NCBI GenBank assembly: GCA_007376385.1
Contig: VMGC01000001.1
Span: 224,001 to 288,000 of the forward strand
Direction: 5' to 3'
Length of the DNA: 64,000 bases
From: Parcubacteria group bacterium Gr01-1014_8
Lineage (GTDB): Bacteria; Patescibacteriota; Minisyncoccia; Phycocordibacterales; UBA2100
Positions 338 through 25,033 of the stretch are shown piece by piece. The position numbers and the translations under genes were made by a program. The notes under the pieces were generated by a model, which saw only the letters and a program-made list of their open reading frames with translations, did not search any database and was not told where the DNA came from. Numbering within the stretch: the first letter of the stretch is position 1; each line of letters opens with the position of its first letter.

Positions 338-760
338 ATGAATGAAAAAGTGAGGATGGTTGAACTTGAGAAAGGAGAGCATGCTTCTGTTATTGGCGTA
401 TCTATTTTTAGAGATAACGCTGAAGGCAAAAAGGAGATTTTACTTGTTAAGGGTCCGTCAGGAAAATGGTATTTTCCGGGAGGGAAGATGCGTAAAGGTG
501 AGAGTATGGATCAATGCGTGAGAAGAGAACTCAAGGAAGAGTTAGGCATCAATTATTCCGGATCCTTCTCGGCTTTTAATATCGGTTCATACGCAATCGG
601 AGGCAAGTTACTCGCAATCGCGAATATAACAGCTCTTGATTCTCTCCCTTCGGAGCCACGCATACAAAAAAGTGATGTCATCCAGGATTTTGTATGGACC
701 ACGAGTCCTTTGGATTATGATTTGACGGAACAAGCTCGCTTCCTCTTGCAAATCAGATGA
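338..760 (+). CDS. NUDIX hydrolase
   Basis: Nudix box GGKMRKGESMDQCVRRELKEELGI (GX5EX7REUXEEXGU). The start is placed at ATG 338 (MNEKVRMVELEK). The longer listed ORF from 155 overlaps purH in another frame. Confidence 0.7.
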   Translation: MNEKVRMVELEKGEHASVIGVSIFRDNAEGKKEILLVKGPSGKWYFPGGKMRKGESMDQCVRRELKEELGINYSGSFSAFNIGSYAIGGKLLAIANITALDSLPSEPRIQKSDVIQDFVWTTSPLDYDLTEQARFLLQIR

Positions 761-849
761 GCAGTTCTCTCCTTATCGAGAAAAAGCAGACCAGGAGTTA
801 GCAGAAGGAGTGTTGATTTAAGCCTTCCCTAGAGGCATACTAAGCCGTC

Positions 850-2175: not shown

Positions 2176-2180
2176 AAGTT

Positions 2181-3089
2181 ATGCTGATTGTCACCTACAG
2201 AAATGTTTTCTTTGCAATAACGGGACTGTTCGTGGTTGTTTCGATTGCCGCGGTTCTCATTTTTGGATTGAAACTTGGTACAGATTTTACAGGGGGCGTC
2301 CTTGCGGAGGCTCGGTACGAGAACAGCCGCCCCTCTGTTGAAGAACTATCCGTATCGCTTCGCGAAGCAGGATACAGCGGCTTTGCGATTCGAGAAGCCA
2401 AAGACAACGGATACATTGTTCGCGCAGGAAACATTTCAAGCGAAATGCGCGCATCGCTTCCGCAAACGCTTTCCATAAACGGTGCGTATCCCGCGACAAT
2501 GGAGCGTTTTTCCGAGATAGGACCCACTATAGGGGTTGAACTTCGAAACAAATCTCTTATTGCCATATCGCTCGTTCTTCTTGCCATTCTGCTCTACATT
2601 GCCCTTGTCTTTCGAAAAGTCTCGAAGCCGGTGTCTTCGTGGATATATGGGCTTATCGCTCTTGTGACCTTAGTTCACGATGTCATCGTGCCTATAGGCT
2701 TTTTTGCGGTGCTCGGGTACGTGTTTGGGGCTCAAGTTGATACGTTGTTTGTAACTGCGGTCCTTACAATTCTCGGCTTTTCTGTTCACGATACGATAGT
2801 TGTATTCGACCGAGTGCGAGAGAATCTTCGTCTCAATCATGAAGCGAATCGGAGAGAAGATTTTGAGCTTACTGCTGGAAGGAGTTTGCAGCAGACATTT
2901 GTCCGTTCGGTGAATACGTCAGTGACGGTCTTGATTTCCCTCGGAGTTCTTTTCTTTGTGGGTCCAGAGAGCACGCAAGATTTTGCGCTAACTCTCATTG
3001 TCGGCATTATCGCAGGAACGTTCTCTTCTATCGCGCTTGCGACACCGCTTTTGGTTACGGTAGAAAAGTGGCGTCGTAAGGACAAATAA
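2181..3089 (+). CDS. secF: Protein translocase subunit SecF
   Basis: Lies immediately downstream of secD. SecF-type TM core (LGTDFTGG..., FDRVRENL). Confidence 0.9.
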   Translation: MLIVTYRNVFFAITGLFVVVSIAAVLIFGLKLGTDFTGGVLAEARYENSRPSVEELSVSLREAGYSGFAIREAKDNGYIVRAGNISSEMRASLPQTLSINGAYPATMERFSEIGPTIGVELRNKSLIAISLVLLAILLYIALVFRKVSKPVSSWIYGLIALVTLVHDVIVPIGFFAVLGYVFGAQVDTLFVTAVLTILGFSVHDTIVVFDRVRENLRLNHEANRREDFELTAGRSLQQTFVRSVNTSVTVLISLGVLFFVGPESTQDFALTLIVGIIAGTFSSIALATPLLVTVEKWRRKDK

Positions 3090-3092
3090 ACT

Positions 3093-3830
3093 ATGCGCGT
3101 TGGCTCGGTCGGTATCATTGGGTACGGTAATTTTGGCGCGTTTTTACACGTGCTATTGAAGCGTTTTGCGCCGCAGATCACCGTCCGCGTCTTCACGCCA
3201 GAAAAGAAACCAGATGGCGCCACATTCTTTTCGATGGAAGAAGCGGCTGTGTCAGACGTTGTTGTGCTTGCTGTTCCTATCAGCGAATTTGAGAACGTAT
3301 TGGAGGATGTATTGCCACACGTCAAAGAGACCAGTGTCATCGTGGATGTCGCCACCGTGAAAATGCATACCGCAGATGTGCTCAAGCGGCTCGCGCCACA
3401 TAGGTCATATATTGCAACTCATCCGATATTCGGGCCCGAGAGCTATGCAAAACGGGAGGGGAACGTATCCGGTTTCAGAGTCGTCATTACGGACCATACC
3501 CTGTCAAAAGATGTGTACAAGGCTACTGTATCGTTCTTAAGGAAAACAGGTTTTGCGGTCATTGAAGTGAGCGCGGATGAACATGATAAACGCTTGGCAC
3601 AAACGCTCTTCTTGACACATTTTATCGGGCAAACCATCACTGAAGCAGAATTTGACAGAACTGACATCGACTCGGTTTCATTCGGATTTCTGATGGATGC
3701 TGTAGAGAGCGTTAAGCACGACAAGCAATTATTTCAAGATGTCTATCGCTACAACCCGCACTGCAAGGCGACATTGGACCGGTTTGAAAAGGCAGAAGCA
3801 AACGTGCGCCGGATGCTCGATAAAAGCTAG
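3093..3830 (+). CDS. tyrA: Prephenate/arogenate dehydrogenase (TyrA family)
   Basis: N-terminal NAD-binding GIIGYGNFGAFL. Size and aromatic-pathway context fit the TyrA family. Confidence 0.6.
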   Translation: MRVGSVGIIGYGNFGAFLHVLLKRFAPQITVRVFTPEKKPDGATFFSMEEAAVSDVVVLAVPISEFENVLEDVLPHVKETSVIVDVATVKMHTADVLKRLAPHRSYIATHPIFGPESYAKREGNVSGFRVVITDHTLSKDVYKATVSFLRKTGFAVIEVSADEHDKRLAQTLFLTHFIGQTITEAEFDRTDIDSVSFGFLMDAVESVKHDKQLFQDVYRYNPHCKATLDRFEKAEANVRRMLDKS

Positions 3831-4969
3831 AGGTATTCGTCAATATTGTCTACGTTGATGCAAATACTGGCGCGCACATAGCGCTCACCGTTCGTCCCAT
3901 ATGCACTGCCAGGTGTAAAGAGCACTTGTTTTTCTTTGAGCAAGTCCATGCAAAAAGTCTCTGAATCTTTTGCCGAGTCAGGTATTTTCGCCCAAATATA
4001 GAGGCTTCCTTTCGGGATTTCCAAGATGAGCCCCAGTTTTTTCATTTTCTCAGCGATGACATCACGGCGTTTTTGATAGGAAGAAAGCATTGCCGCGTGC
4101 CACTTTTCGTCACGATTATTCAGGGCGTATGCGCCGAGGAGTTGCAAGGGAAGCGACATGCCGGAATCCATTTGCGACTTCACCTTCTGCATAGCCGCAA
4201 TGATGTCTTTATTTCCAACTATCCAGCCCATCCGGAAACCTGCAAACGAGAACGTCTTTGAAAATGATCCTATTTCGACGCAATGTTCTTTTGCGCCTGC
4301 AACCTGAAGAATACTCGGCGCGACGAACCCATCGAATGTTATTTCTGCGTATGCGTTGTCATAAATAATTGGGAGGTCGTGCTTTTTTGAGAACGCCGTG
4401 ATTTCTTTGAGCTCATCGAGCGATGCAACGGCTCCGGTCGGGTTTCCGGGGAAATTCACCCACATGTATTTTGTTTTGTTCGTGATTTGCCTTGCAACAG
4501 AATCAAACATCGGCTTGAAATCATGTTCTGGCAGCAAGTCGTAATAATTGGAAGTAACTCCGAACATTGGACCTGGTTCGCTGAAAGGGGGATATCCAGG
4601 GTTCGGCGCCAGTACGTTGTCGCCTTCGTCTGCCAAGGCAAGAGGTAAGTGGCTAATCCCATCTTTACCGCCCAGTAGCGGCAGCACTTCATCATCCTCG
4701 AGCACAACATCGAATCGTTTCTTGTACCATGCTCGCACTGCATCATTGAATTCTTTGACGCCTTTATATCCGGGGTAGAGATGCGCTTTTGGGTCCCGGA
4801 CAAACTCAAAGAATTTCTGGATATACTTCTCACTCGGTGGAAAATCTGGGCTTCCCGGACCGAAGTTCAAGACTTTTCTCGCAGTCGCTTTTTCAGTTTC
4901 TACTACAGCTCTATTTAGTCTCGAAAAGATGTATTCAGGAAACTTCTCGACACGGTTCGCGATTCTCAT
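3827..4969 (-). CDS. Class I/II PLP-dependent aminotransferase (candidate aromatic/aspartate aminotransferase)
   Basis: SFSKTFSFAGFRMGW PLP-lysine region and NPGNPTG-like motif (NFPGNPTG). It overlaps the chorismate mutase gene upstream on the same strand. Confidence 0.75.
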   Translation of the reverse strand: MRIANRVEKFPEYIFSRLNRAVVETEKATARKVLNFGPGSPDFPPSEKYIQKFFEFVRDPKAHLYPGYKGVKEFNDAVRAWYKKRFDVVLEDDEVLPLLGGKDGISHLPLALADEGDNVLAPNPGYPPFSEPGPMFGVTSNYYDLLPEHDFKPMFDSVARQITNKTKYMWVNFPGNPTGAVASLDELKEITAFSKKHDLPIIYDNAYAEITFDGFVAPSILQVAGAKEHCVEIGSFSKTFSFAGFRMGWIVGNKDIIAAMQKVKSQMDSGMSLPLQLLGAYALNNRDEKWHAAMLSSYQKRRDVIAEKMKKLGLILEIPKGSLYIWAKIPDSAKDSETFCMDLLKEKQVLFTPGSAYGTNGERYVRASICINVDNIDEYL

Positions 4970-5244
4970 AGTTTTATGTTCTTTTGGATTGCGACGGAGT
5001 TTTTGTGGATCCTAGAGAAGATCTCATTTGCGAGTTTTGTCGATATCTTCATCGCTTTCGCCATGGCGATCCGTGATTTTATGAGCTGCGTTTTTCGTGT
5101 CTTATCGAGCGCTCTCATTCCTTTCTCGAGCTTATATTTGCCTATCACTTTCGAGAGCTTAGCCCGCTTTGCGAGCGCAGAAAGGATAATGGTGTCCACG
5201 GTGTCTATCTCTTTTCTCAGGCTTTCCAGTTCTTTCTTCTGCAT
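4966..5244 (-). CDS. Chorismate mutase (AroQ class)
   Basis: 92 aa. LRKEIDTVDTIILSALAKRAKLSKVIGKYK is the AroQ helix-1 signature. Its stop overlaps the start of the aminotransferase. Confidence 0.7.
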   Translation of the reverse strand: MQKKELESLRKEIDTVDTIILSALAKRAKLSKVIGKYKLEKGMRALDKTRKTQLIKSRIAMAKAMKISTKLANEIFSRIHKNSVAIQKNIKL

Positions 5245-5284
5245 AGTTCAGAATGTAGCGTATTTGGGGGCTTTTGTCGCGCCT

Positions 5285-5570
5285 ACGTTGACAGAGGGAA
5301 GAAATGGGGTAGAGTCTGGTGAGTTAAAGCTGTTCAGGTCCCGTCCGCCAGTTGGCGGAGGGGGTTGGGCCTGGATTCCTTAAGTGGGAAAGTGGTCATT
5401 GCGTAAGTGGTGACTCGGACTCCTCCGTAATCAGGATAACTGATGTCCACCAGCTGGCGGAGTCAGCGAAAGTCCGCCTCTGGCGGAAAAGTAAGGTGGC
5501 ACCGTGTCGAGAGACGCCCTTACATCGTAACGAATAGTTGCGGCGTGAGGGCGTTTTTTATTAGAAACTG
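5285..5570 (+). promoter_or_regulatory. Candidate T-box leader (Trp-specific) upstream of trpE
   Basis: AAGUAAGGUGGCACCGUGU at about 5488-5507 matches the T-box core AGGGUGGNACCGCG with N=C (it would pair with the G73 discriminator of tRNA-Trp). UGG triplets occur in the putative stem I (GAAAUGGGG at about 5300). A terminator hairpin GACGCCC...GGGCGU plus a U6 run ends at 5569. The position in front of the trp operon fits. Confidence 0.45.
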
Positions 5571-5702
5571 TCCAAAAAAGTCCAATTGCGTCGTTGCGAG
5601 CTGTGGTACTCCCTCACAATACGTCATGTATTGTTCGGTTCGTTCCTCGCTCGCGCCTAGCATTCGGAGCTTTTTGAAACAGTTTCGGGGCATCAGAACA
5701 GC

Positions 5703-7049
5703 ATGAAAATTCCAAAAATAAAATTAGGGCAAAAACCGACTTACGTGAAGATCGCGGAGGATGTGGATTTCTTTGATTTGTTCAAAAAGGTGGAAGAGCA
5801 TTTTGAAACGTGCTTTATTTTCGAATCACTCGGAGAAGAGGGAAAATTCTCTCGCTATTCCATTATCGGTTTCGATCCAGCTCACGTGGTATCTGCCCGC
5901 GAGAAGATACTTACATTTGATGGCGAACGATACGATGTAGAAAATCCATACGCTGCTTTGAGGCAGATCATGCCGAGGCAAACCATTGCGCGGAATTACG
6001 CAGGGGGGCTCATCGGGTATTTAAGCTACGAGGCAGTGAACTATTTTGAGCCGAAGGTTTCGGTGAAGGTTCATGATTCATTCGAGCAATTCATGTTCGG
6101 CGTTTATTTAGACGGGCTCATACTGGACAAACTTACGAACGAGCTTTTTTACTTTTACTATGACAATGATAGAAGCGGCACTCTTAAGGAAGTAATGCAT
6201 AGAGTTCCCAATAAGAAATCGTTCACAGCGGAATTTATTAAGGATGGTCTCACCCAGAAAGAACATGCGACGATAGTAGAGCGCGTCAAAGAACATATTC
6301 GAGCGGGAAATACGTTCCAGTGCGAGGTCGGTTTCAAGAGCGCGTACAAGGTAGGTGGGGACGTTGTCGCTATTTACGAGAAGTTGCGGGATGTAAATCC
6401 TTCTCCTTTTATGTATCATCTCAAGTTCGGGGCAAAACACATCATCGGGGCAAGTCCCGAGCTTTTATTTTCTCTTCGAGACGGTGAAATGACGACGCGT
6501 CCTCTTGCGGGAACTATTCGTCGCGGAAGGGATGACAAAGAGGACCAGCTGCTCGCAAGAAAGCTTCTTAGCGATCCCAAAGAGCGAGCGGAGCATACGA
6601 TGCTCGTTGATATGCATCGGAATGACATCGGGCGTGTTGCGAGGTTTGGCACCGTCCGCGTCAAAGATCTGATGACAGTCAAGAAGTTTAGCCACGTACA
6701 GCACATGTCGAGCGAAGTCGTCGGCGTCATACGGCCGGGCGAGGACATGTTCTCGGGGCTCCAGAGCAATTTTCCAATGGGAACGATTTGCGGCACGCCG
6801 AAAGTGGAGACGCTGAAGATAATAGATGCAAATGAGCCTGAAGCGCGCGGACCGTATGGTGGAGGCGTTGGGCATTTTGGATTCAACGGTGACTGCACAT
6901 TCGCGCTTACACTTCGTTCAGTATTCATACACAACTCCAACGCATATACGCAGACATGCGGCGGAATCGTGTACGACTCGACACCGGAGAATGAATATGA
7001 GGAAATTCAAAGAAAATCAGCTGCGATGAAAAAAGTACTTGGCGTATGA
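5703..7049 (+). CDS. trpE: Anthranilate synthase component I
   Basis: 448 aa. Chorismate-binding domain (LAGTIRRGRD..., GTICGTPK, PYGGGVGHFGFNGD). Confidence 0.9.
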   Translation: MKIPKIKLGQKPTYVKIAEDVDFFDLFKKVEEHFETCFIFESLGEEGKFSRYSIIGFDPAHVVSAREKILTFDGERYDVENPYAALRQIMPRQTIARNYAGGLIGYLSYEAVNYFEPKVSVKVHDSFEQFMFGVYLDGLILDKLTNELFYFYYDNDRSGTLKEVMHRVPNKKSFTAEFIKDGLTQKEHATIVERVKEHIRAGNTFQCEVGFKSAYKVGGDVVAIYEKLRDVNPSPFMYHLKFGAKHIIGASPELLFSLRDGEMTTRPLAGTIRRGRDDKEDQLLARKLLSDPKERAEHTMLVDMHRNDIGRVARFGTVRVKDLMTVKKFSHVQHMSSEVVGVIRPGEDMFSGLQSNFPMGTICGTPKVETLKIIDANEPEARGPYGGGVGHFGFNGDCTFALTLRSVFIHNSNAYTQTCGGIVYDSTPENEYEEIQRKSAAMKKVLGV

Positions 7050-7642
7050 AAATACTTATCATAGATAATTACGATTCGTTCACCTACAACCTCTATCAAC
7101 TGGTGGGGGAAATTTTGAAAGCAGAACAAGGAGATTTCACTATTGATGTTGTGCGCAACGATGAGATAACCCTCGATGAAATACAAAGGCGCGCGTACGA
7201 CAGAATAATCATCTCCCCAGGGCCAGGTGACCCGAGTGACAAACACTATTTTGGTGTGTGTGCCGATGTCATCTTGCATGTTGGCAAAAAGACGCCAATT
7301 CTCGGTGTGTGCCTTGGAATGCAAGGAATTGCGCACTATTTTGGCGGGAAGGTTGTTCGCGCAAAAGTACCGATGCATGGCAAGACAAGTGAAATAGAGC
7401 ACGATGAAAAAGGTGTCTTTGCAGGACTTCCGCAGGGTCTCGAAGTCATGCGTTACCACTCGTTGGTGGCGGAAAAAGAATCACTGCCTAGTTCGCTTGT
7501 CGTCACATCAACGGCGAAAGATTCTGGTGAGATAATGGGACTTCGCCATGTGAAATATCCGATAGAAGGTATTCAATTCCATCCAGAGTCATTTGCAACA
7601 GAAGGAGGAAAAAGACTTCTGGAAAATTTCTTGAAGGTATGA
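7046..7642 (+). CDS. trpG: Anthranilate synthase component II (glutamine amidotransferase)
   Basis: Class I GATase (GVCLGMQ, HPES). Start overlaps the trpE stop. Confidence 0.85.
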   Translation: MKILIIDNYDSFTYNLYQLVGEILKAEQGDFTIDVVRNDEITLDEIQRRAYDRIIISPGPGDPSDKHYFGVCADVILHVGKKTPILGVCLGMQGIAHYFGGKVVRAKVPMHGKTSEIEHDEKGVFAGLPQGLEVMRYHSLVAEKESLPSSLVVTSTAKDSGEIMGLRHVKYPIEGIQFHPESFATEGGKRLLENFLKV

Positions 7643-8649
7643 TACTGGACTTATTAAAGAAACTCGTTGAGAAAAAAGACCTGACTGTTTCGGAGTCGGA
7701 GCAATTCCTATTGGAAGTGATGAAAGGGGGAGTGAGCCCGACATGTATCGCAAGTATTCTCGTTGCACTGCGAATGAAAGGCGAGTCAGTTGATGAGATA
7801 GTCGGATTCCTCCGCGCGATGCGCGCGAACATGCTGAAAGTGAATGCGCCGGACGCGATTGATATCGTAGGAACCGGTGGGGACGGAAGCGGCACGTTCA
7901 ATATCTCGACTACCGCGGCTTTTGTGGTTGCAGGGGTGGGAGTAAAAGTGGCAAAGCACGGTAACCGTGCGGCAAGCAGCAAGTGCGGAAGCGCGGATGT
8001 TTTGGAAGCACTTGGCGTGAATATTCAGCTTACGAAGGAACAGGCGGAAGAAGTGTTTAAAAATGTCGGGCTCGTCTTTATGATGGCGCCTCTGTATCAC
8101 CCCGCGATGAAAGAGGTTGCCGCCGTCAGAGAAGAATTAAAGATACGAACTGTTTTTAATGTCCTAGGTCCATTCGCGAACCCTGCTTCGACGCAAACAC
8201 AATTAACTGGTGTTCCGAATAAGGCCATCGCAAAGAAATTGGCGGAGGTCGGCAAGCGGCTTGGCTACAAACGACTTCTCGTTGTCTCGAGCAATGATGG
8301 GATGGACGAGATAAGTTTGTCGTCAAAGACACATATGTTCGATGTCTATCGCGGCAAAGTAAAGAAATCGCTTATCGACCCGAAAAGATATGGATTCAAG
8401 CGCTCATCCAAGAAAGATATTCTTGGTGGGGATGCAACCGAGAACGCAGCTATTATCCGAGCGATTTTGAGTGGTGGAAGCGGGGCACAGCGTGACGTCG
8501 TTGTCTTTAACAGCGCGTTCGCGCTCTATGCTGCTGGCGCAGCCGCTTCAATTCAAGAGGGAATAGAGAAAGCTAAGCAGTCTATTGATAGCGGCAGCGC
8601 GCTTCGCGTATTAGAGTCATTGATACGGGAGACACAGAACTTCGCGTAA
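7639..8649 (+). CDS. trpD: Anthranilate phosphoribosyltransferase
   Basis: GTGGDGSGTFNISTTAAFVVAG and KHGNRAASSKCGSADVLEALG motifs. Confidence 0.9.
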   Translation: MILDLLKKLVEKKDLTVSESEQFLLEVMKGGVSPTCIASILVALRMKGESVDEIVGFLRAMRANMLKVNAPDAIDIVGTGGDGSGTFNISTTAAFVVAGVGVKVAKHGNRAASSKCGSADVLEALGVNIQLTKEQAEEVFKNVGLVFMMAPLYHPAMKEVAAVREELKIRTVFNVLGPFANPASTQTQLTGVPNKAIAKKLAEVGKRLGYKRLLVVSSNDGMDEISLSSKTHMFDVYRGKVKKSLIDPKRYGFKRSSKKDILGGDATENAAIIRAILSGGSGAQRDVVVFNSAFALYAAGAAASIQEGIEKAKQSIDSGSALRVLESLIRETQNFA

Positions 8650-8656
8650 CTAACCT

Positions 8657-9937
8657 ATGATCAGTGTTCAACTACAGCCGCTAACTGGCCCCGCCAATAC
8701 GAGCGTCGATATACCCGGCTCTAAAAGCTATACAAACCGCGCACTCCTCATGGCGACGATGTGCCGTGAGGCTGTTCGGATCCTTAAACCGCTGGTGAGT
8801 GACGACACGAGGGCGATGCTCAACTGTTTAAAGACTCTTGGTATCAAGGTTGAGGAAAAGAGCGACGAGATAACGGTGATAGGGCATATAACGGACGTGA
8901 AGAATCAGGACTACGAACTTGATGCCGACCTCTCAGGCACAACGATTCGATTTATGCTCGCCCTTTCATGTGTTTTGCCCGGTGTTCAAACATTGGTTGG
9001 AAAAGAAGGTCTCAACAAGCGCCCTATCAAGGATCTCGTTGATGGTCTTAGACAGCTCGGTGCAAAGATAGAATACCTTGAAAAAGAAGGCTTTCCGCCT
9101 CTTCGAGTTTCTTCGTATGAATTGAATCCCGGGACTATCCGCCTGAAGGGAGGGGTAAGCAGTCAATTTTTGTCTGCCATTTTGATGATTGTTCCGCAGG
9201 TGGGGGATGTCACGCTCGAGGTCGAGGGTGAGCAAATATCAAAGCCCTACATAGACATGACAATAGATACTATGTCGCGCTTCGGTGTATCAGTTGCTAA
9301 TTTGAACTACCAGCGGTACCGCGTCTCGGTTGGACAGGTCTACCAAGGTACTGAATATACGGTCGAAGGGGACGTTTCGAGCGCTTCGTACTTCGCTGCG
9401 ATTGCCGCGCTCACGAAGTCTCGCATAACGCTCGCGAACATGAATCCGCAGTCCGTGCAGGCTGACATGCATTTTTTTCACATTCTTGAGGACATGGGCG
9501 CGTCTGTCAGCTATGAGAAAGACAGAATAGTCGTGGTGGGAAATGGCGTGATGCCAATGGAAGTAGATATGGAAAATTGTCCCGACCAGGCTCAAACAAT
9601 GGCGGTTCTCTCTGCGTTTGCTCCGGGCGTAACGAAACTTTCTGGGGTGCGCTCGCTTCGTCTGAAAGAGACAGAAAGGGTGAAAGCGCTTGAAGCGGAG
9701 CTTGCGAAGATGGGCATCAAGACCGAATCAACTGAAGATATGCTCACGATATACGGAGGTTCGCCAAAAGCCGCAGCAATAGACACCTACGGCGACCACA
9801 GGATGGCAATGTCTTTCGCGGTTGCGGGGGCAATGCTTGATGGCATGCAAATAAACGATTTCGGCGTTGTAGGAAAGACATTTCCTCAATTTTGGGAGAA
9901 ACTCGAATCAATTGGAGTCGGAGTAAAAAGGGTATGA
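8657..9937 (+). CDS. aroA: 3-phosphoshikimate 1-carboxyvinyltransferase (EPSP synthase)
   Basis: GSKSYTNRALLMA, LNKRPI and DHRMAMSFAVAG motifs. Embedded inside the trp gene string. Confidence 0.9.
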   Translation: MISVQLQPLTGPANTSVDIPGSKSYTNRALLMATMCREAVRILKPLVSDDTRAMLNCLKTLGIKVEEKSDEITVIGHITDVKNQDYELDADLSGTTIRFMLALSCVLPGVQTLVGKEGLNKRPIKDLVDGLRQLGAKIEYLEKEGFPPLRVSSYELNPGTIRLKGGVSSQFLSAILMIVPQVGDVTLEVEGEQISKPYIDMTIDTMSRFGVSVANLNYQRYRVSVGQVYQGTEYTVEGDVSSASYFAAIAALTKSRITLANMNPQSVQADMHFFHILEDMGASVSYEKDRIVVVGNGVMPMEVDMENCPDQAQTMAVLSAFAPGVTKLSGVRSLRLKETERVKALEAELAKMGIKTESTEDMLTIYGGSPKAAAIDTYGDHRMAMSFAVAGAMLDGMQINDFGVVGKTFPQFWEKLESIGVGVKRV

Positions 9938-10458
9938 ATATCGTACTCATCGGAATGCGCGGGAGCGGTAAATCGACTGTTGCAAAAATGCTTGCGAAGA
10001 AGCTTGGCCGGAAATATATGGAATTGGACGACGAGATAGCCAAAAAAGCCGGCGCGCGCATCTCTGAAGTCGTGGAGCAGCAGGGTTGGAATTATTTCCG
10101 CGTGAGAGAAGCGGAGGTAGTCGAAGAAGCTGCTGCAGTAGACAATACGGTCATCTCCACCGGGGGTGGTGTTGTCTTGCAGAGTAAAAACGTTCAAGCA
10201 TTGAAGAAAAACGGTATCTGTATCTTTTTAAGCGCGCCAATCGAGGAACTGCTTCCACGCATTGGTGAATCGTCTACCAGACCGCGGCTTACAGGTGCAA
10301 AGACGATGAAAGAGGAATTGGAGAAAGTATGGGAAGAGCGCAAGCCGTTGTACGAAAAAGCAGCGGACGAGACTATTGATACTACAGGCATGAAACCGAA
10401 AGATATTGCCGAGGAAATAGTGCAGAGACTTAAAAAGAAGCATATAGTGCAAATCTGA
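9934..10458 (+). CDS. aroK: Shikimate kinase
   Basis: MNIVLIGMRGSGKSTVAKMLAKKLG P-loop. ATG 9934 overlaps the aroA stop (ATGA). The listed ORF from 9892 is an in-frame upstream extension. Confidence 0.85.
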   Translation: MNIVLIGMRGSGKSTVAKMLAKKLGRKYMELDDEIAKKAGARISEVVEQQGWNYFRVREAEVVEEAAAVDNTVISTGGGVVLQSKNVQALKKNGICIFLSAPIEELLPRIGESSTRPRLTGAKTMKEELEKVWEERKPLYEKAADETIDTTGMKPKDIAEEIVQRLKKKHIVQI

Positions 10459-10459
10459 T

Positions 10460-11542
10460 ATGGCAGGAAATTCATTCGGACAACTTTTTAGAATAACGAC
10501 ATTTGGTGAATCGCACGGCGGGGCTGTTGGGGTTGTACTGGATGGATGTCCGCCGGGGATTCAAATAACCGAAGAAGAAATCCAAATTCAGCTCGACCGT
10601 CGGAAGCCGGGGCAAAGTCATATCACGACGTCTCGCAAAGAGGCAGATAAAATAAAGATACTTTCTGGCTACTATGAGGGAAAAACGACTGGGACACCGA
10701 TACTTCTTATCGCATACAACGAAGATGCTAAGTCGGGGGATTACAAGGAACTGATGAAAGCGTACCGCCCGTCGCATGCAGATTACACGTACGAAGCAAA
10801 ATACGGCTTCCGCGATTGGCGTGGAAGCGGCCGCGCTTCGGCGCGCGAGACGCTTGCGCGCGTAGCAGCCGCGGCGATTGCACAGAAATATCTACAAGAA
10901 AAAGAGGGAATTGAGTGCCTGAGTTTCGTTGAACAAGTCGGCGACATCAAGGCGGATGTTGATGTTGAGAAAGTGCAGATGAAAGACATAGAATCCAACA
11001 TCATTCGATGTCCCGACCAGAAAGTGGCGGAGAAGATGATCGCGCTTGTTGAGAAAACGAAAGCAGAGGGTGATTCCATCGGCGGTATCATTCAGGGTGT
11101 TATTCGTGGCGTGCCAGCGGGCCTAGGCGAGCCGGTATTCGATAAAATTCCTGCTGACCTTGCGAAAGCAATGTTAAGCATCAATGCAGTCAAGGGATTC
11201 GAAATGGGGCTTGGGTTTCGAAGCGTCGGCATGAAAGGAAGTCAGCACAACGACCCGATGGAAATCCGTGATGGGAAAATTCGGACGAAAAAGAATGACG
11301 CCGGAGGCACATATGGTGGCATTTCAAGCGGCGAAACGATTCATTTCCGCGTTGCGTTCAAACCTGTCTCAACTATTGCAAAAGAGCAGGACACTGTCAC
11401 AACTGAAAAGAAGGCAACAAAACTTGCAGCCGCCGGTCGCCACGACCCGTGCGTCCTCCCCCGCGCCGTCCCCATCGTCGACGCCATGTCCGCGCTCGTC
11501 ATCATGGATCACTATCTTCGCAACAAGGCGCAAAATAAGTAG
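10460..11542 (+). CDS. aroC: Chorismate synthase
   Basis: FGESHGGAVGVVLDGCPPG N-terminus and GRHDPCV motif. Confidence 0.9.
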   Translation: MAGNSFGQLFRITTFGESHGGAVGVVLDGCPPGIQITEEEIQIQLDRRKPGQSHITTSRKEADKIKILSGYYEGKTTGTPILLIAYNEDAKSGDYKELMKAYRPSHADYTYEAKYGFRDWRGSGRASARETLARVAAAAIAQKYLQEKEGIECLSFVEQVGDIKADVDVEKVQMKDIESNIIRCPDQKVAEKMIALVEKTKAEGDSIGGIIQGVIRGVPAGLGEPVFDKIPADLAKAMLSINAVKGFEMGLGFRSVGMKGSQHNDPMEIRDGKIRTKKNDAGGTYGGISSGETIHFRVAFKPVSTIAKEQDTVTTEKKATKLAAAGRHDPCVLPRAVPIVDAMSALVIMDHYLRNKAQNK

Positions 11543-11554
11543 TACAATTTCCGA

Positions 11555-12058
11555 ATGAGCATGGAAGGCGGACCAAAACCTAGGAAAGGAATTCTTTCTG
11601 GTTTACAGAGATGGCTTGAACAACGAAAAGAACGAATAACGCTTGAAGAGGTAAGAGATCACTTGAGCTTTAATCTGTGGAAAACAGCCGATGCGGTGTG
11701 CACAGAAATCTTGGAAAATCGATTAGCGCAAGGCCGCACAGCTCCTAAATACACGAAGCTTAATCTCGATCGATCAAATTACTCTGAGTGGCAGTCGTAT
11801 TTTGATATGCGTTCGAGAACATCGAACTTTTGCATCCGCTTGTTTTCGATGAGGGAAGCGGATGTTAAGCAAGAAAATGAACTTACAGATCAGGAAAGGC
11901 AATGGGCTCGAACAGGTCCATCAGATGACGATCGCAGAAAGACTTATTTTGCTAATACTGGACATCATATCCCGTATTTTCGGCTTGTTCGAGGAGGTAG
12001 TCGACGTCGTGTTGAACAAAGTGAAGGAGATTCGTCGCCGATTACGGTTAAATCTTAA
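11555..12058 (+). CDS. Hypothetical protein (167 aa) at the 3' end of the trp/aro gene string
   Basis: An ORF without recognisable motifs fills the gap between aroC and the convergent trpA. Confidence 0.35.
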   Translation: MSMEGGPKPRKGILSGLQRWLEQRKERITLEEVRDHLSFNLWKTADAVCTEILENRLAQGRTAPKYTKLNLDRSNYSEWQSYFDMRSRTSNFCIRLFSMREADVKQENELTDQERQWARTGPSDDDRRKTYFANTGHHIPYFRLVRGGSRRRVEQSEGDSSPITVKS

Positions 12059-12064
12059 TTTGAT

Positions 12065-12889
12065 CTATAATTTCAGTTGAGACATCGTTTTTTCCACCGC
12101 GGAAATCTTCTTGTTCTTCTTTAGGGCGACAACAAACACACTTCCTGCGATCACAATATCCGCTACTTTGGACAAATCTTTTACATCCTTTTTTGACTTA
12201 ACACCGAATCCAACGGCCACGGGAAGTTCAGAAGTGCTTCGCAGTGTTTTTATAAATGCGGGCAAATCGGACGCAAACACACTTGTTGCTCCGGTGATTC
12301 CTTGTCGCGTTGTGCAGTACCAGAACCCCGTTGCGTCTTTTGCGAGCGTTTCAAGGCGTTCCTTTGGAACGCCGGGGGATACAACAGGAATTAATGCAAT
12401 ACCAGCTGCCTTGCACGTCGCAAGCAGAGACCAGCCTTCCATCGTGTCGAACGGACAATCTGGAACAATTAATCCGACCGCCCCAGCGTTGGAGATGGTC
12501 TTGATGAATTTTGGGATGCCCATCCGGTAAATAGGGTTGGCGTAAGTCATCACAACGACCGGCTTCTTGAATTTCGCAACCTTTTTTACGACTTCTAGAG
12601 CTTTTTTGACTGTCGCGCCTTTCTTGAGCGCCTCTTCGCACGCGACCGCAATTGTTGGGCCATCAGCCATTGGGTCGGAGAAGGGGATTTGCACTTCGAT
12701 AATATCTGCTCCACCTTTGGCGAGTGCCTTTGCGACCTGGATGGATTCAGAAATCGTCGGAAGCCCCGCGATCATGTGCGCCATGAAAAGAGATTTTTTC
12801 CCTCTGTTTTCCAATAAAACCATCAAGGCGACGCCTTGATGGTTTTTCTCAATGGAAGTTGTCATTCTAGTCATAGCGGTTGTATTCAT
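12065..12889 (-). CDS. trpA: Tryptophan synthase alpha chain
   Basis: LIAGLPTISESIQVAKALAKGGADIIEVQIPFSDPMADGP matches the TrpA N-terminal region. The true start may be the internal Met at 12823, because the 12889 start overlaps trpB by 23 nt. Confidence 0.85.
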   Translation of the reverse strand: MNTTAMTRMTTSIEKNHQGVALMVLLENRGKKSLFMAHMIAGLPTISESIQVAKALAKGGADIIEVQIPFSDPMADGPTIAVACEEALKKGATVKKALEVVKKVAKFKKPVVVMTYANPIYRMGIPKFIKTISNAGAVGLIVPDCPFDTMEGWSLLATCKAAGIALIPVVSPGVPKERLETLAKDATGFWYCTTRQGITGATSVFASDLPAFIKTLRSTSELPVAVGFGVKSKKDVKDLSKVADIVIAGSVFVVALKKNKKISAVEKTMSQLKL

Positions 12890-14078
12890 CTTTGAGGAAG
12901 TCTCTGAAGCTTTTGTCTTTGAAGGCGCGGGCGAAGTTGAAAAGGTCTTTGTCGCCGCGGCCGGAGAGTGTAGCGACGATGATGTGATCCTTTTTCATTT
13001 TTGGGGCGATTTTTATCACATGTGCAAGTGCGTGCGCGCTCTCGAGCGCGGAAATTACTCCTTCGAGTTTCGCGAAGAAATCTACCGCCGCAACCGCTTC
13101 TGTATCCAGCGCATACGTAAGTTCCAAGCGCCCTTCTTGGTAGAGGTCTGCGAGTTCGGGACCAAGTCCTGGGTAATCGAGTCCGGCGGAAATAGAATGC
13201 GTGGGCGCAATTTGACCGTCGTCCGTCTGCAGAAAGAGAGATTTGTATCCCTGAAATATCCCCAACACTCCTGCTATTTTTCGGGATGCATGCTGTCCAA
13301 CCTTTTTTCCAATTCCTCCCGCCTCCACTCCTATCAATCGCACTGAAGATTCAGGCACAAAGTCATAAAAACTGCCGATGGCGTTTGAGCCTCCGCCGAC
13401 GCAGGCAACGACTACATCCGGGAGCTTGCCTTCGCGCTCCTGTAGTTCAGAACGAATTTCTCGTCCAATGATGGATTGGAAGTATCGGTTCATTTCGGGA
13501 TATGGTTTTGGGCCAAGCACGGAGCCGATGCAGTAATGCGCTTTCTCAAGATTTTCCATCCAGAATTTTAGCGCCTCGTTCACCGCGTCTTTCAGAGTCT
13601 TGCTTCCGTATTCAACGGGAATTACTTTCGCACCGAGTCGTTCCATCAAGAATACATTTGGTCTCTGGCGGCGTATGTCTTCGTTTCCCATGAATACTAC
13701 ACACTCAAGTCCTAGTTTTGCCGCTACCGTTGCTGTTGCGACGCCGTGTTGTCCTGCGCCAGTTTCTGCGATGAGCATCTTTTTGCCCAGTTTTTTCGCC
13801 AGGAGCCCTTGTCCGAGGCAGTGCGTTATCTTATGAGCACCAGTATGGTTTGCGCCCTCGTTCTTCAGATATATCTTCGCGCCGCCAAGTTTCTTCGTTG
13901 CCCGCTCTGCAAAAATGAGGGGAGTAGGACGGCCAGAAAAATTCTTTAAGAGGTCTCTGAATTCCTTTTGGAACTCGGGGTCTCTTTTTGCTTTCTCAAA
14001 TGCGGCGATAAGCTGCTGCAGGGTCTCCCATAGCATTTCGGGTATATATGCTCCGCCGAATGTCTCACGCTCTGTCAT
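12867..14078 (-). CDS. trpB: Tryptophan synthase beta chain
   Basis: HTGAHKITHCLGQ PLP-lysine motif and GGGSNAIG. Confidence 0.9.
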   Translation of the reverse strand: MTERETFGGAYIPEMLWETLQQLIAAFEKAKRDPEFQKEFRDLLKNFSGRPTPLIFAERATKKLGGAKIYLKNEGANHTGAHKITHCLGQGLLAKKLGKKMLIAETGAGQHGVATATVAAKLGLECVVFMGNEDIRRQRPNVFLMERLGAKVIPVEYGSKTLKDAVNEALKFWMENLEKAHYCIGSVLGPKPYPEMNRYFQSIIGREIRSELQEREGKLPDVVVACVGGGSNAIGSFYDFVPESSVRLIGVEAGGIGKKVGQHASRKIAGVLGIFQGYKSLFLQTDDGQIAPTHSISAGLDYPGLGPELADLYQEGRLELTYALDTEAVAAVDFFAKLEGVISALESAHALAHVIKIAPKMKKDHIIVATLSGRGDKDLFNFARAFKDKSFRDFLKDEYNRYD

Positions 14079-14863
14079 ATCATTGCTTTCTGAAGTTCTC
14101 GTATCTTCTCGAGGGGGTCATTAGACTCCAGAATCGCAGTTCCAACAAGGATTCCTCGGACGCCGGTTTTGCGAACACGAAGCACATCATCAGCCGTGTA
14201 AATTCCTGATTCACTCACGACGGGTATGTCTTTGGGGATGGAGTTCATCAGCGTTTCTGTTGTGCTGAGGTCTATTTCCATAGTTCGGAGGTTGCGGTTG
14301 TTGATGCCGATGAGTTTTGCATTCGCTTCTATCGCCTTTTTCACATCTTCTTCGTCGTGCACTTCAACGAGACTTCCGATGCCAAGCGATTCTCCAAGGG
14401 ATATGAGTTCAGCGAGCTTGTCTTTCTCAAGCACCGCTGCGATGAGAAGAAACGCATCGCCACCCCCGGCAAGTGTTTCGTAGACCTGGTATTCATCAAC
14501 GATAAAATCTTTTCTTAGAATTGCTTGCGGAACTTTTTCTCGCACGTGCTGCAACAATTCAAGACTCCCGCCGAAATATTTGTTGTCAGTAAGAACGGAA
14601 ATCGCGTCCGCTGCACTTTCGGCGTACAGTTCTGCAACTTTGAGCGGGGAATCGATGAGTTTACCGGCGGAAGGAGAGCGCGGCTTTATCTCTGCAATGA
14701 GAACGCTTGATCCGGGGTCGCTAAATCGCGAGCGAAATGGTCTCGCTTTTCGGTATTGTTTTTGCTCCGATATACGTGCTCGCAAGACCTCAAGCGGCAC
14801 TTTCTTCATCCTCTCTTCCAGTTCGGAGCGGGTATTAGATACTATTTCATCGAGTACTGTCAT
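14075..14863 (-). CDS. trpC: Indole-3-glycerol phosphate synthase
   Basis: IAEIKPRSPS motif and IGINNRNL. Its stop overlaps the trpB start. Confidence 0.85.
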   Translation of the reverse strand: MTVLDEIVSNTRSELEERMKKVPLEVLRARISEQKQYRKARPFRSRFSDPGSSVLIAEIKPRSPSAGKLIDSPLKVAELYAESAADAISVLTDNKYFGGSLELLQHVREKVPQAILRKDFIVDEYQVYETLAGGGDAFLLIAAVLEKDKLAELISLGESLGIGSLVEVHDEEDVKKAIEANAKLIGINNRNLRTMEIDLSTTETLMNSIPKDIPVVSESGIYTADDVLRVRKTGVRGILVGTAILESNDPLEKIRELQKAMI

Positions 14864-14935
14864 GCTCGGCTATTATAGTGATTATCACGAATTTACCTAG
14901 CGTTTTAGCCCTTTGCAGTCTACGATGGAGCATTC

Positions 14936-15574
14936 ATGGTTAAGGTGAAGATCTGCGGCAATACGAGCAAGGAAACTGCGCTTGCCGCGCTTTCGTATGG
15001 TGCAGATATGCTTGGATTCATTGTGAATGTTTCTGGATCAAAGACTTCCATAACGCCAGAGCAGGCGCGTGAAATTATTTCTGCGCTGCCGTCTGGCGAG
15101 ACTGTGGTGGTTACAACTGCAACAGATGCTCAGGAAATAAAAAGACTTGCACAGGAAACTGGCGTTTCAACAATTCAATACCATGGTGAAGTGTCACCGG
15201 AGACAATTGCAAAGATAAAAGATGAGCTACCGAATATCGCCGCGTGGAAAGTAATCCATGTGAAAGATGAGAGTGCGATTGATGAAGCAAGGAAATATGA
15301 AAGTATCGTAGACGCGATACTTTTGGACACAGCACAGGGCGGCCAAATCGGCGGAACTGGTACTACGCATGACTGGAATATTAGCCGCATAATTGCAGGT
15401 GATTATTCCAAACCGATCATCTTGGCCGGGGGACTGAATCCAGACAATGTGGAGGAAGCAATACGGGTCGTGAAGCCCTATGCGGTAGACGTGAACTCCG
15501 GTGTTACTAACTCGGATGGCTCAAAGGACCTTGAAAAAGTGAAGCTTTTCATAGAACGTGCAAAGGGCAAATGA
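14936..15574 (+). CDS. trpF: Phosphoribosylanthranilate isomerase
   Basis: MVKVKICGNTSKETALAALSYGADMLGFIV N-terminus, and AGGLNPDNV. Confidence 0.85.
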   Translation: MVKVKICGNTSKETALAALSYGADMLGFIVNVSGSKTSITPEQAREIISALPSGETVVVTTATDAQEIKRLAQETGVSTIQYHGEVSPETIAKIKDELPNIAAWKVIHVKDESAIDEARKYESIVDAILLDTAQGGQIGGTGTTHDWNISRIIAGDYSKPIILAGGLNPDNVEEAIRVVKPYAVDVNSGVTNSDGSKDLEKVKLFIERAKGK

Positions 15575-15591
15575 GGCCTTAAAATCGTCGC

Positions 15592-15619
15592 TTGACAGGG
15601 GTCGCAAGTCGACTATACT
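15592..15619 (+). promoter_or_regulatory. Sigma70-type promoter, probably driving the rRNA transcript
   Basis: TTGACA (15592-15597), 16-nt spacer, TATACT (15614-15619). It sits right after the trpF stop, about 440 nt upstream of the 16S 5' end. Confidence 0.45.
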
Positions 15620-16340
15620 GTCCTGAACTACCGACCTCGGTGGTTTTTTTGACCCTCCTGTGAGGAGGGACAGAAGGCTTGAACTTTGACAACTGAATAT
15701 GAAAAATTGTACGCAAAACCAAAAAAGAAATTGGTAAGTAAAATTGTTGCCGGCGCTCGCTCGGAATTGAAAATTTATTTTCATTTCGCTCGCTCGCATG
15801 GGCAATAAGAATTCTTGTTGTTCTCAAGTTAGGAACAATAAGACACACACAAAAGCAAGAAAACAGAAAATACATATTGAGGTTCCAGGAGGATCTCATG
15901 TGTAAGTAAACAGTAATAACGAGACAAAAGATCCCCCAAGGGGACTGCGACTTTCTACGATTCAAATGAATCGTGAAAGTCGGGAGATATACATTCTTTT
16001 GTTTCGTCCATCCTAGAGATATTGAAGCAATTCAAATTCTTGAAAGTGGTGTAAAAACCATTTTTACTTAGAGTTTGATCCTAGCTCAGGGTGAATGCTG
16101 GCGGTATGGATAAGGCATGCAAGTCGAATGGGTTAGACCCATGGCAGACGAGGTAGTAACAGGTAGGTACGTCCCCGGAAGTCGGGCATAACCAGCCGAA
16201 AGGTTGGATAATTCCCGATGGTCTCGCAAGAGTAAAGATTTATCGCTTCCGGAGCGGCCTGCTTTGTATCAGCTTGTTGGTGAGGTAACGGCTCACCAAG
16301 GCTATGACGCATAGGGGACCTGAGAGGGTGACCCCCACCG

Positions 16341-16377
<37 letters not shown>

Positions 16378-16891
16378 TGCAGCCGAGAATATTCGACAAT
16401 GGGCGAAAGCCTGATCGAGCGATACCGCGTGGTGGATGAAGCGCTTCGGCGCGTAAACACCTTTTATGAGGGAAGAAATTTTGACGGTACCTCATGAATA
16501 AGGGGCTCCTAACTCTGTGCCAGCAGGAGCGGTAATACAGAGGCCCCAAGCATTACCCGGAATTACTGGGCGTAAAGGGTGCGTAGGTGGTCATATTAGT
16601 CGCCTGTTAAAACCCACGGCTCAACTGTGGAACCGCGGGCGAAACGGTATGACTAGAGAGAGTGAGAGGTGAATGGAACTCATGGTGTAGGGGTGAAATC
16701 CGTTGATATCATGGGGAACACCGAAAGCGAAGGCAATTCACTGGCACTTTTCTGACACTCAAGCACGAAAGCGTGGGTAGCGAACGGGATTAGATACCCC
16801 GGTAGTCCACGCCCTAAACGATGATCGCTGGATTTGGGGAGTATCGACCCTCTCCGAGTCGAAGCTAACGCGTTAAGCGATCCGCCTGGGT

Positions 16892-16923
<32 letters not shown>

Positions 16924-17390
16924 AGACGGGGGCTTGCACAAGTGGTGGAGCGTGTGGCTCAATTCGTCGCTAAGCGAAGAACCTTACCAGGGCTAGAAAT
17001 CCAGCTGCATACTTTGGGAAACCTTAGTAGCCTTCGAGGGTGCTGGACAGGTGATGCATGGCTGTCGTCAGTTCGTGGTTTGAATCGTTCCCTTCAGTGG
17101 GGTAACGAACGCAACCCTCGTTGCCTGTTATATTTGTCAGGCGAGACTGCCCCCTCACGGGGGAGGAAGGTGAGGATGACGCCAAGTCAGCATGTCCCTC
17201 TGATGTCCTGGGCTGCACACGCGCTACAATCGCCGTTACAACGAGGCGCAACGTCGTAAGACCGAGCAAATCTTTCAAAAGCGGCGCCAGTTCGGATTGA
17301 GGTCTGCAACCCGACCTCATGAAGCCGGAATCACTAGTAATCGCGGGTCAGCCACACCGCGGTGAATACGTTCTCAAGCCTTGTACTCAC

Positions 17391-18600: not shown

Positions 18601-18620
18601 GCGTGTGCTAGATTAATGCC

Positions 18621-18968: not shown

Positions 18969-18974
18969 CTCGGC

Positions 18975-19070: not shown

Positions 19071-19113
19071 TTCACATGAGAGAAGTTGAAACCACTCCCG
19101 CTCTTGATACATC

Positions 19114-25015: not shown

Positions 25016-25033
25016 GGGCTGTATACTTTAGTC

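Follow-up and report, generated by a model that had tools for sequence, protein, structure and literature searches.

In Bacillus subtilis the tryptophan genes stand among shikimate genes, together with an aminotransferase gene and tyrA, in the one-directional supraoperon aroF-aroB-aroH-trpEDCFBA-hisC-tyrA-aroE. The system responds to uncharged tRNA-Trp, and it does so through TRAP and anti-TRAP: the T-box lies on the anti-TRAP operon and not directly on trpE. Elsewhere, Trp T-boxes occur on the trp operons of Firmicutes and Chloroflexi, while T-boxes with an ultrashort Stem I are found before ileS in Actinobacteria. Bacteria of the candidate phyla radiation (CPR, or Patescibacteria) are described as having no amino-acid biosynthesis (Danczak 2017, PMC5581439, and also more recent papers), and a search of the open-access literature turned up no account of trp genes, shikimate genes or T-boxes in Kaiserbacteria or other CPR. 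Here we study a 64,000-nucleotide (nt) stretch of the genome of Parcubacteria group bacterium Gr01-1014_8 (contig VMGC01000001.1, positions 224,001 to 288,000), below called the window, which holds aromatic amino-acid genes at positions 3093-15574. Taken as a whole, these genes are best explained as a native, lineage-conserved and mosaic Trp/Tyr gene cluster of a Kaiserbacterium under the control of a T-box, a reading that we consider rather likely.

An earlier note on this DNA had recognised the genes, and had left two possibilities: a notable metabolic capability, or an organism that is not a typical CPR member. The second is rejected by the phylogeny. Trees of concatenated ribosomal proteins, of rpS3 and of gyrA place the genome, named Y2 Bin 8 in the original study, in Kaiserbacteria (Danczak 2017 Table S3, PMC5581439), and in the nirK alignment of the same study it is tagged "Candidatus Kaiserbacteria" (PMC5581439). 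Gr01-1014_8 is thus a bona fide CPR member, a Kaiserbacterium, by published marker phylogenies, and none of the three marker trees places it outside CPR. The bin is from groundwater, collected on a 0.1 µm filter at the Greene well in October 2014, and has a completion of 0.97, a misbin value of 0 and a GC of 49.9% (Danczak 2017 supplement, PMC5581439); its 1,060,117 bp lie on five scaffolds, the longest of 407,897 bp (PMC5581439). Two hallmarks of CPR are present, a small genome (1.06 Mb) and an rRNA gene interrupted by an endonuclease-encoding insertion. The 16S gene of the window is 91.5% identical to that of locus L002, from a metagenome-assembled genome labelled Kaiserbacteria (L numbers denote the loci that we compared).

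Genes were assigned by NCBIfam profile scans on a list of open reading frames (ORFs), using the curated or equivalog cut-offs as thresholds, and all those named in the earlier note were found again at their places. The 13 enzymes are all full length, with the profiles covered essentially end to end. The longest unit, on the plus strand, consists of trpE (5703-7049), trpG (7046-7642), trpD (7639-8649), aroA (8657-9937; 433 bits), aroK (9934-10458; 150 bits) and aroC (10460-11542; 476 bits), so that aroA-aroK-aroC, the shikimate steps 5, 6 and 7, share a transcription unit with trpEGD. On the minus strand trpA (12065-12889), trpB (12867-14078) and trpC (14075-14863) form one operon, trpC-trpB-trpA, with a TATAAT box 8 nt upstream of the trpC ATG. 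Divergent from trpC, across a spacer of 72 nt, is trpF (14936-15574, plus strand; NCBIfam PRAI, 185 bits vs a cut-off of 215). Start and stop codons overlap by 4 nt at trpE/G, trpG/D and trpB/C, and also at aroA/aroK (ATGA) when aroK starts at the ATG at 9934, its probable real start. The scores of trpD, aroA, aroC, trpA, trpB, trpC and trpG exceed the curated cut-offs. The tryptophan pathway that the earlier note called complete is present in full, as TrpE, G, D, F, C, B and A are all full-length matches and five of the seven lie above these cut-offs.

The tyrosine genes lie upstream of trpE. The first, tyrA (3093-3830, plus strand), encodes a short prephenate/arogenate dehydrogenase of 245 amino acids (aa) with no fused prephenate dehydratase or ACT domain (NCBIfam 1e-28, below the cut-off; Pfam PDH_N). 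It starts 4 nt past the stop of secF (2181-3089, plus strand), which follows secD (850-2175, plus strand); both sec genes score above the NCBIfam cut-offs for SecF and SecD, and the adjacency secD-secF-tyrA is kept in the relatives L003 and L013. On the minus strand are an AroQ chorismate mutase of 92 aa (4966-5244; NCBIfam chorismate mutase families at 1e-13, below the cut-offs) and a class-I aminotransferase (3827-4969; NCBIfam DapC_direct, 378 bits vs a cut-off of 593). The latter is a pyridoxal phosphate (PLP) enzyme of the aspartate/aromatic/LL-diaminopimelate-like type, with the PDB relatives 2X5D, 1DJU (an aromatic aminotransferase) and 6F77. Its gene is co-transcribed 3' of chorismate mutase, and the enzyme could act as a prephenate/aromatic aminotransferase.

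In content this is a supraoperon, with aro, trp, aminotransferase and tyrA genes together, and the likeness to B. subtilis is one of general gene design. The name that the earlier note used does not fit the layout: the genes occupy both strands and make up at least five transcription units, whereas the B. subtilis supraoperon runs in one direction. A single supraoperon describes the CPR relatives treated below better than the bidirectional cluster found here. Another difference is that the early shikimate genes are present in the B. subtilis genome. Between aroC and trpA an ORF of 167 codons (11555-12058, plus strand) was considered as a missing enzyme; it has no NCBIfam or Pfam match and no tblastn match in any related locus, and it is doubtful as a gene.

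The gap of 458 nt between chorismate mutase and trpE holds a promoter and a T-box leader, neither of which figured in the first reading. The promoter is sigma-70-like, TTGACA-16 nt-TAGAGT (5288-5315, plus strand), scores 10/12 in a promoter scan and is the second best in 700-16100; both hexamers align in L002, L003, L012 and L013. The leader (5324-5562, plus strand) is recognised by the Rfam T-box model RF00230, by conservation and by its fold. RF00230 matches it end to end with 29 bits (E 1.3e-4, 561 nt searched). It begins with a short Stem I of about 45 nt (approximately 5333-5376), with a 3' bulge GUUGG that contains the putative Trp specifier UGG (5366-5368). The Stem II and IIA/B region, as aligned by the Rfam model, extends to 5430. 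The T-box core AAGGUGGCACCGUG is at 5493-5506, and a terminator hairpin (5510-5553) is followed by a U-run (5554-5559).

The expression platform contains two competing structures. The antiterminator is GUAAGG-UGGCACC-GUGUC GAGA GACGC-CCUUAC, with the canonical 7-nt bulge UGGCACC, and its 3' strand can instead pair in the terminator, CGCCCUUAC…GUGAGGGCG followed by U6. By this predicted antiterminator/terminator pair the leader is a T-box. Its fold has a z-score of -6.8. We modelled the structure with RNAfold for each leader and RNAalifold on five leaders. The leader is kept 5' of trpE in four relatives, and among the five aligned leaders 12 of the 60 predicted pairs carry compensatory changes on both sides; in the terminator a C-G pair becomes U-A and inner pairs have changed on both sides. 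A T-box core also stands 5' of trpE in L004 and L006, and the L006 leader reaches 48.7 bits (E 1.4e-9). In bacterial tRNA-Trp the discriminator is G73, which fits the predicted pairing of a 3' GCCA end with UGGC of the bulge.

Two observations concern the sequence just before trpE. From the T-box terminator to trpE there are about 140 nt (5563-5702) as compared with approximately 15-25 nt in the relatives, and the extra stretch is not conserved. An ORF of 87 codons (5443-5706) was rejected as a gene, regulator or leader peptide, since it runs across the 3' half of the T-box leader and through the sequence that separates the leader from trpE; it also has no family match and an implausible Cys/Ser/Arg-rich sequence.

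Compared with the T-boxes that define RF00230, the leader shares the core AAGGUGGCACCG within an antiterminator with a 7-nt bulge, the competing intrinsic terminator, Stem II and IIA/B-like elements, and a specifier the size of one codon in the 3' strand of Stem I. In many members of the class described below, the foot of Stem I also has a K-turn-like UGA…GA. The difference is in Stem I, which here consists of two short helices, the lower one short and the upper one a variable capped hairpin, with a 4-5-nt bulge on the 3' side; there is no S-turn, and no AG bulge or distal-loop platform to take up the tRNA elbow. The actinobacterial ileS T-boxes are similar in their reduced Stem I, but the leader described here ends in a transcription terminator.

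To see how widespread such leaders are, we scanned metagenome contigs from JGI for exact matches to a pattern that joined the IIA/B element and the T-box core, and obtained 54 loci (L019-L072). About 25 unique leaders fold into the same short-Stem-I architecture when each is folded with RNAfold, and the last three bases of the bulge are UGG in all of them (AUUGG, GUUGG, CUGG, AAUGG, GUGG). The genes behind UGG leaders include trpE, trpB, TrpB-like PLP enzymes, a TrpD-like protein and a glutamine amidotransferase, and UGG ends the bulge in every leader linked to trpE, trpB, a TrpB-like or a TrpD-like gene. Leaders of SerA-like (phosphoglycerate-dehydrogenase-like) genes instead carry UCG at the place of the specifier, and a pheS leader that the pattern also picked up shows a long Stem I of the conventional kind, with UUC-A; both support the register in which we read the specifier. 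The specificity for Trp, read from the bulge and from the linked genes, thus appears to have good support.

Other genes behind UGG leaders include GCS2/YbdK-like carboxylate-amine ligases of 250-290 aa (for instance in L034, L036 and L045; others by similar N-termini), a 775-aa PPDK_N/PEP-utiliser protein in L054, and Cys-rich ORFs of about 80 aa in L020, L029, L037 and L053. Together the genes behind UGG leaders may form a Trp-responsive regulon with uncharacterised members. In L037 and L040 the UGG T-box lies about 350 nt upstream of tyrS, which we rejected as its target: a small Zn-ribbon ORF, a terminator and a fresh promoter intervene.

A pathway of this kind in CPR could have been acquired recently from a bacterium outside CPR, or joined to the contig by an error of assembly or binning. 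Such an origin would agree with the general description of CPR as having no amino-acid biosynthesis, and with trpCBA, trpF, tyrA and chorismate mutase having no close relatives outside their own clade. The earlier note had proposed GC and codon usage as a test of horizontal acquisition, and by this test the cluster is indistinguishable from the 33 other genes of the window: GC is 0.480 vs 0.492 (p=0.12), GC at third codon positions 0.513 vs 0.503 (p=0.39), and the codon-usage distance to the pooled non-cluster genes 0.134 in both sets (p=0.77). The tetranucleotide profiles of 6.25-kb chunks are uniform, with correlations of 0.88-0.94 with the whole window. Physically, the cluster lies between secDF and an intron-bearing CPR 16S gene on one 408-kb scaffold, in a bin where no misbinning was found.

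The stronger argument is synteny. Relatives were collected by a scan of GTDB species representatives with TrpE and by look-ups of TrpE homologues. In L003 and L013 the order is purH-…-secD-secF-tyrA / aminotransferase-chorismate mutase / trpEGD-aroA-aroK-aroC / trpA-B(-C) (/ trpF), and the core trpEGD-aroAKC / trpABC (/ trpF) is found in L002, L005 and L012. In L002 the 16S gene comes next after trpF, as in the window. Both junctions of the cluster thus recur in independent assemblies from other samples (L002, L003 and L013), which removes the chimeric contig that the earlier note had named as a possible refutation. In a separate assembly (L001, Logan, run SRR8863434) trpB-trpC-trpF and the DNA just past trpF are found at 99-100% identity. 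Across the Kaiser-type loci the orthologues are 47-90% identical and their order is kept. Named close TrpE relatives are nearly all labelled CPR; two of them carry odd names, Methylomirabilota and Nanoarchaeota, and were probably binned wrongly. Because composition and codon usage match the window and the synteny is shared by independent assemblies, we conclude that the cluster is native, neither chimeric nor recently acquired, and a foreign origin is extremely improbable. In L013 (11983-15751) the trpG-trpD junction is broken by a 650-aa ORF with no Pfam matches, two small ORFs and an RVT_1 reverse transcriptase, which looks like the insertion of a mobile element into the operon.

With genuine CPR membership and a native cluster, the reading of the genes as a notable metabolic capability holds. 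Nor is the capability peculiar to Gr01-1014_8: more than 120 TrpE sequences in the databases are at least 69% identical, the named ones belonging to Kaiserbacteria, Pacebacteria and the Patescibacteria group, and other CPR have more complete supraoperons. The order in L018 (Logan SRR22388045) is trpE-G-D-C-F-B-A-DAHPS-aroB-aroA::aroK-aroE-aroD-aroC-CM-aminotransferase-tyrA::pheA, where DAHPS is 3-deoxy-D-arabino-heptulosonate 7-phosphate (DAHP) synthase and CM chorismate mutase. A 269-kb contig from the European Nucleotide Archive (L015) has tkt-DAHPS-aroB-aroQ-aroA-aroK-aroE-aroC-CM-aminotransferase-tyrA::pheA-trpR-like-trpEGDCFBA-trpS. In L014 and L017, whose TrpE are labelled Pacebacteria and Patescibacteria, trpEGDCFBA is followed by DAHPS-aroB-aroA::aroK. 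In L006 an archaeal-type dehydroquinate synthase (DHQS-II), aspartate kinase and asd precede aroA, aroK::aroE, aroD, aroC and trpEGDCFBA.

The supraoperons of L018, L015 and L014/L017 have the same gene content from chorismate to Trp, and the same set of CM, aminotransferase and TyrA, as the cluster studied here. They differ in being single co-directional strings of 16-20 genes, while here trpCBA and trpF are inverted or separate. They also hold DAHP synthase, aroB, aroD or aroQ, aroE and a fused TyrA::PheA, none of which was found in the window, and L014 and L015 have a TrpR-like protein in place of the T-box.

A further difference is seen in the sequences. We calculated mean pairwise protein identities between the Kaiser-type loci and the second CPR group, and within the latter. 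For TrpE (72% between the groups and 74% within the second), TrpG (73 and 73%), TrpD (55 and 59%), AroC (73 and 82%) and the aminotransferase (61 and 68%) the two values are about equally high. The other genes are much more distant between the groups than within the second: TrpC (34 and 56%), TrpF (32 and 49%), TrpA (40 and 66%), TyrA (29 and 62%) and CM (35 and 52%), with TrpB (64 and 78%) intermediate. For TrpC, TrpF and TrpA the identity to the second group is no better than that to Bacteroidota (36, 26 and 32%). Overall, TrpE, TrpG, TrpD, AroA, AroK, AroC and the aminotransferase have a mean identity of 42-73% to the complete CPR supraoperons, and the aminotransferase is 61% identical to those located between CM and tyrA::pheA in L015 and L018. 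By contrast, trpC/F/B/A, tyrA and CM, at 29-40% identity (trpB 64%), appear to be of another lineage than their counterparts there.

Since the identities fall into two classes, and the physical split of the genes matches the split in identity, the cluster is, as judged by these protein comparisons, an evolutionary mosaic. The genes trpCBA, trpF, tyrA and CM would come from a different and deeply divergent source than trpEGD, aroAKC and the aminotransferase, which would derive from a 16-gene aromatic supraoperon of CPR. A search of representatives for a donor of trpCBA gave TrpA sequences at most 50% identical as the best matches outside the lineage itself. When [trpCFBA-DAHPS-aroB] and [aroE-aroD] are removed from the order of L018, what remains is exactly trpEGD-aroA-aroK-aroC-CM-aminotransferase-tyrA. 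This match suggests that two deletions took place in such a supraoperon and that its Trp half was restored by xenologous trpCBA and trpF. Like the T-box, the mosaic origin goes beyond the earlier note, and so does the apparent loss by excision of both the pre-shikimate steps and the Phe branch.

How far does the pathway reach? The predicted route from chorismate to Trp is complete, and that from chorismate to Tyr is complete in outline (CM, aminotransferase and TyrA). Among proteins of solved structure, TyrA is closest to the plant-type 'Prephenate dehydrogenase 1' 5T9F (E 9e-23); in the alignment, Asp210 of TyrA falls on residue 222 of that enzyme. Schenck and colleagues are said to have found in 2017 that an acidic residue at position 222 of soybean PDH1 marks specificity for arogenate. 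A plant-type TyrA with Asp at the equivalent of 222, together with the CM-linked class-I aminotransferase, suggests that Tyr is probably made via arogenate.

Upstream of chorismate the shikimate steps 5-7 are present (aroK, aroA and aroC). For steps 1-4, DAHP synthase or its archaeal-type counterpart ADH (2-amino-3,7-dideoxy-D-threo-hept-6-ulosonate) synthase, dehydroquinate synthase, dehydroquinase and shikimate dehydrogenase, no Pfam match was found in the sizeable ORFs of the 64-kb window. The relatives were searched ±10 kb around the cluster in five Kaiser-type loci; tblastn with DAHPS, AroB, AroQ, AroD, AroE, DHQS-II and prephenate dehydratase of CPR as queries gave no match there or in the window. 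For the Phe branch, no prephenate or arogenate dehydratase was found in the window or in the same surroundings of these five relatives, and the dehydratase domain fused to TyrA in L015 and L018 is missing from TyrA here. Thus, of the intact aromatic module with Tyr and Phe branches that the earlier note described, the part from chorismate to Trp and Tyr stands, while the first four shikimate steps, the dehydratase and with it the Phe part were found neither in the window nor in the five relatives.

Two explanations of this gap have to be weighed. In the first, the rest of the 1.06-Mb genome encodes the early enzymes (DAHP synthase or archaeal-type ADH synthase and DHQS-II, dehydroquinase, shikimate dehydrogenase) and prephenate dehydratase, and Trp, Tyr and Phe are made de novo from central metabolites. 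The window is only about 6% of the genome, and other CPR contigs do hold early steps, for example L015 (DAHPS-aroB-aroQ…aroE), L018, L014 and L017, as well as L006 with DHQS-II, aspartate kinase, asd, aroK::aroE and aroD. Near-complete pentose-phosphate pathways are reported for the bins of the original study (Danczak 2017, PMC5581439), and purT, the purN-like gene and pdxS/T in the window indicate that the lineage keeps more biosynthesis than the CPR stereotype. Against a pathway that is complete but scattered, the early genes are missing from the window and the five relatives; in every other CPR locus with aro genes that we examined these cluster with trp genes. Further, the gene order resembles a clean excision of exactly the early-step genes, and the lists of the 120 best AroB and AroE homologues, drawn up with proteins of the nearest complete clusters, hold no sequence named as Kaiserbacteria. 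We regard de novo synthesis as possible, at somewhat less than an even chance.

In the second explanation, two deletions removed trpCFBA and the four pre-shikimate enzymes, a foreign trpCBA/trpF patch replaced the former, and shikimate, or a close precursor, would be imported from a host or neighbours and converted to Trp and Tyr behind a minimal-Stem-I T-box gate. We put forward this scenario, with all its parts, tentatively. For its central part, the absence of steps 1-4 from the lineage and a start from scavenged shikimate, the balance is slightly favourable. A loose analogy in logic are the trp operons of Chlamydia, where a reduced genome keeps the distal part of a pathway and would need an external intermediate. 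Here the retained part would be longer, from shikimate onward and ten steps to Trp, and the external dependence is deduced from gene content.

Several observations weigh against the view of a native, T-box-controlled mosaic cluster, or against parts of it. Although of the right family, trpE, trpF, aroK, tyrA, the aminotransferase and chorismate mutase score below the equivalog cut-offs. The leader, at 29 bits, falls well short of the RF00230 gathering score of 93, the scores seen for this type being 29-49 bits with L006 included, and an Rfam scan of the whole window at the gathering threshold reports no T-box. No conserved distal motifs of the Stem I platform (AG bulge, distal loop) are seen, and the Rfam alignment deletes most Stem I positions. 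No tRNA-Trp gene with which to check the discriminator lies in the 64-kb window. Some of the genes behind UGG leaders have no known connection with Trp: the GCS2-like ligases, the PPDK-like protein and the small Zn-ribbon ORFs. The contrast between the modules, drawn from pairwise identities, could in part reflect unequal evolutionary rates and not different origins. Regarding the early steps, 64 kb of a 1.06-Mb genome are covered, and the early shikimate genes and the dehydratase could lie elsewhere. Finally, the lack of Kaiserbacteria names among the best 120 relatives of the L014 AroB and of the L018 AroE, lists that include Pacebacteria, Roizmanbacteria, Levybacteria and Saccharimonadales (the TrpE list does hold Kaiserbacteria), is suggestive and not conclusive: these lists end at the best 120 matches, at least 53-60% identical, and more divergent Kaiserbacteria proteins would not show.

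It could also be asked whether the cluster is a decaying remnant, or serves another purpose, such as anthranilate-, indole- or chorismate-derived metabolites. The apparent loss of the early steps and of the Phe branch can be read as ongoing erosion, and some of the genes behind T-boxes of this class have an unknown role. However, none of the 13 enzymes is truncated and the coverage of their profiles is intact, the overlapping start and stop codons are retained, and the 47-90% identity and preserved order across the Kaiser-type loci indicate purifying selection. A leader that senses tRNA-Trp is, moreover, the control expected for the supply of Trp to translation. We consider decay or another role very improbable; the cluster is conserved across the family, under regulation and probably functional.

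In the working model of this native and regulated cluster, AroK, AroA and AroC would convert shikimate to chorismate, TrpE/G, D, F, C and A/B would lead from chorismate to tryptophan, and CM, the class-I aminotransferase and the plant-type TyrA would lead to tyrosine via arogenate. Uncharged tRNA-Trp would pair with the UGG specifier in the truncated Stem I and with UGGC in the antiterminator bulge. Its binding would stabilise the antiterminator, the terminator (5510-5559) could not form, and transcription would read through into trpEGD-aroAKC. The units secDF-tyrA, CM-aminotransferase, trpCBA and trpF are apparently constitutive.

On this evidence a whole CPR family keeps and regulates one of the most expensive amino-acid pathways, which bears on what such cells need from partners, on the design of growth media and on auxotrophy-based models of CPR symbiosis. 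Should the pre-shikimate steps be truly absent, the predicted required nutrient would be shikimate, not tryptophan. The Trp T-boxes with truncated Stem I would extend the known structural range of T-boxes into CPR, and the class would mark a small regulon that includes the uncharacterised GCS2-like ligases, the PPDK-like protein and the Zn-ribbon proteins.

Downstream of trpF lies the 16S rRNA gene (16063-18350), split near E. coli position 1400 in the way the earlier note had described. Exon 1 breaks off after …CTTGTACTCACA at about 17390 and exon 2 restarts at CGCCCGTCA at about 18233. The insert of approximately 840 nt contains a LAGLIDADG endonuclease ORF (17713-18168) and a weak Rfam match to group-II-intron D1-D4 (17639-17726; 42 bits, above the gathering score). 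The 3' end of the gene is GGATTCATTC, with no CCUCC anti-Shine-Dalgarno sequence (18330-18350). Shine-Dalgarno-like tetramers are found upstream of 3 of the 41 genes in the window, with a background of 0.116, and many genes, such as trpC, purT and murC, have a -10-like box a few bases 5' of the ATG; this scarcity and these boxes suggest leaderless or Shine-Dalgarno-independent initiation. No 23S gene follows the 16S gene, so the rRNA genes appear unlinked: about 3.3 kb, with an ORF of 554 codons (19114-20778) that has no Pfam match, lead to tRNA-Ile (21658-21730) and then murA (18350-21930 for the whole stretch). An ORF of 251 codons with a weak LAGLIDADG_3 match (29631-30386) overlaps tRNA-Leu(CAG) (30283-30367) on the same strand.

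The GenBank proteins TSC87117-TSC87139 are the products of the cluster region, and the genes are already named there. Elsewhere in the window, a homologue of TrwB/TraG-like coupling proteins is followed by a lamin-tail-domain protein (51192-53764), and L012 and L016 have DUF8128/TraG-like genes of a similar kind close to their trp clusters. The window also contains biosynthetic genes that are uncommon in the CPR stereotype, namely the 3' end of purH (1-329, which matches L003 and L013), purT, a purN-like formyltransferase gene, pdxS and pdxT, the further stretches being at 23753-26754 and 32280-33765. The last two encode PLP synthase, whose product serves TrpB and the aminotransferase as cofactor.

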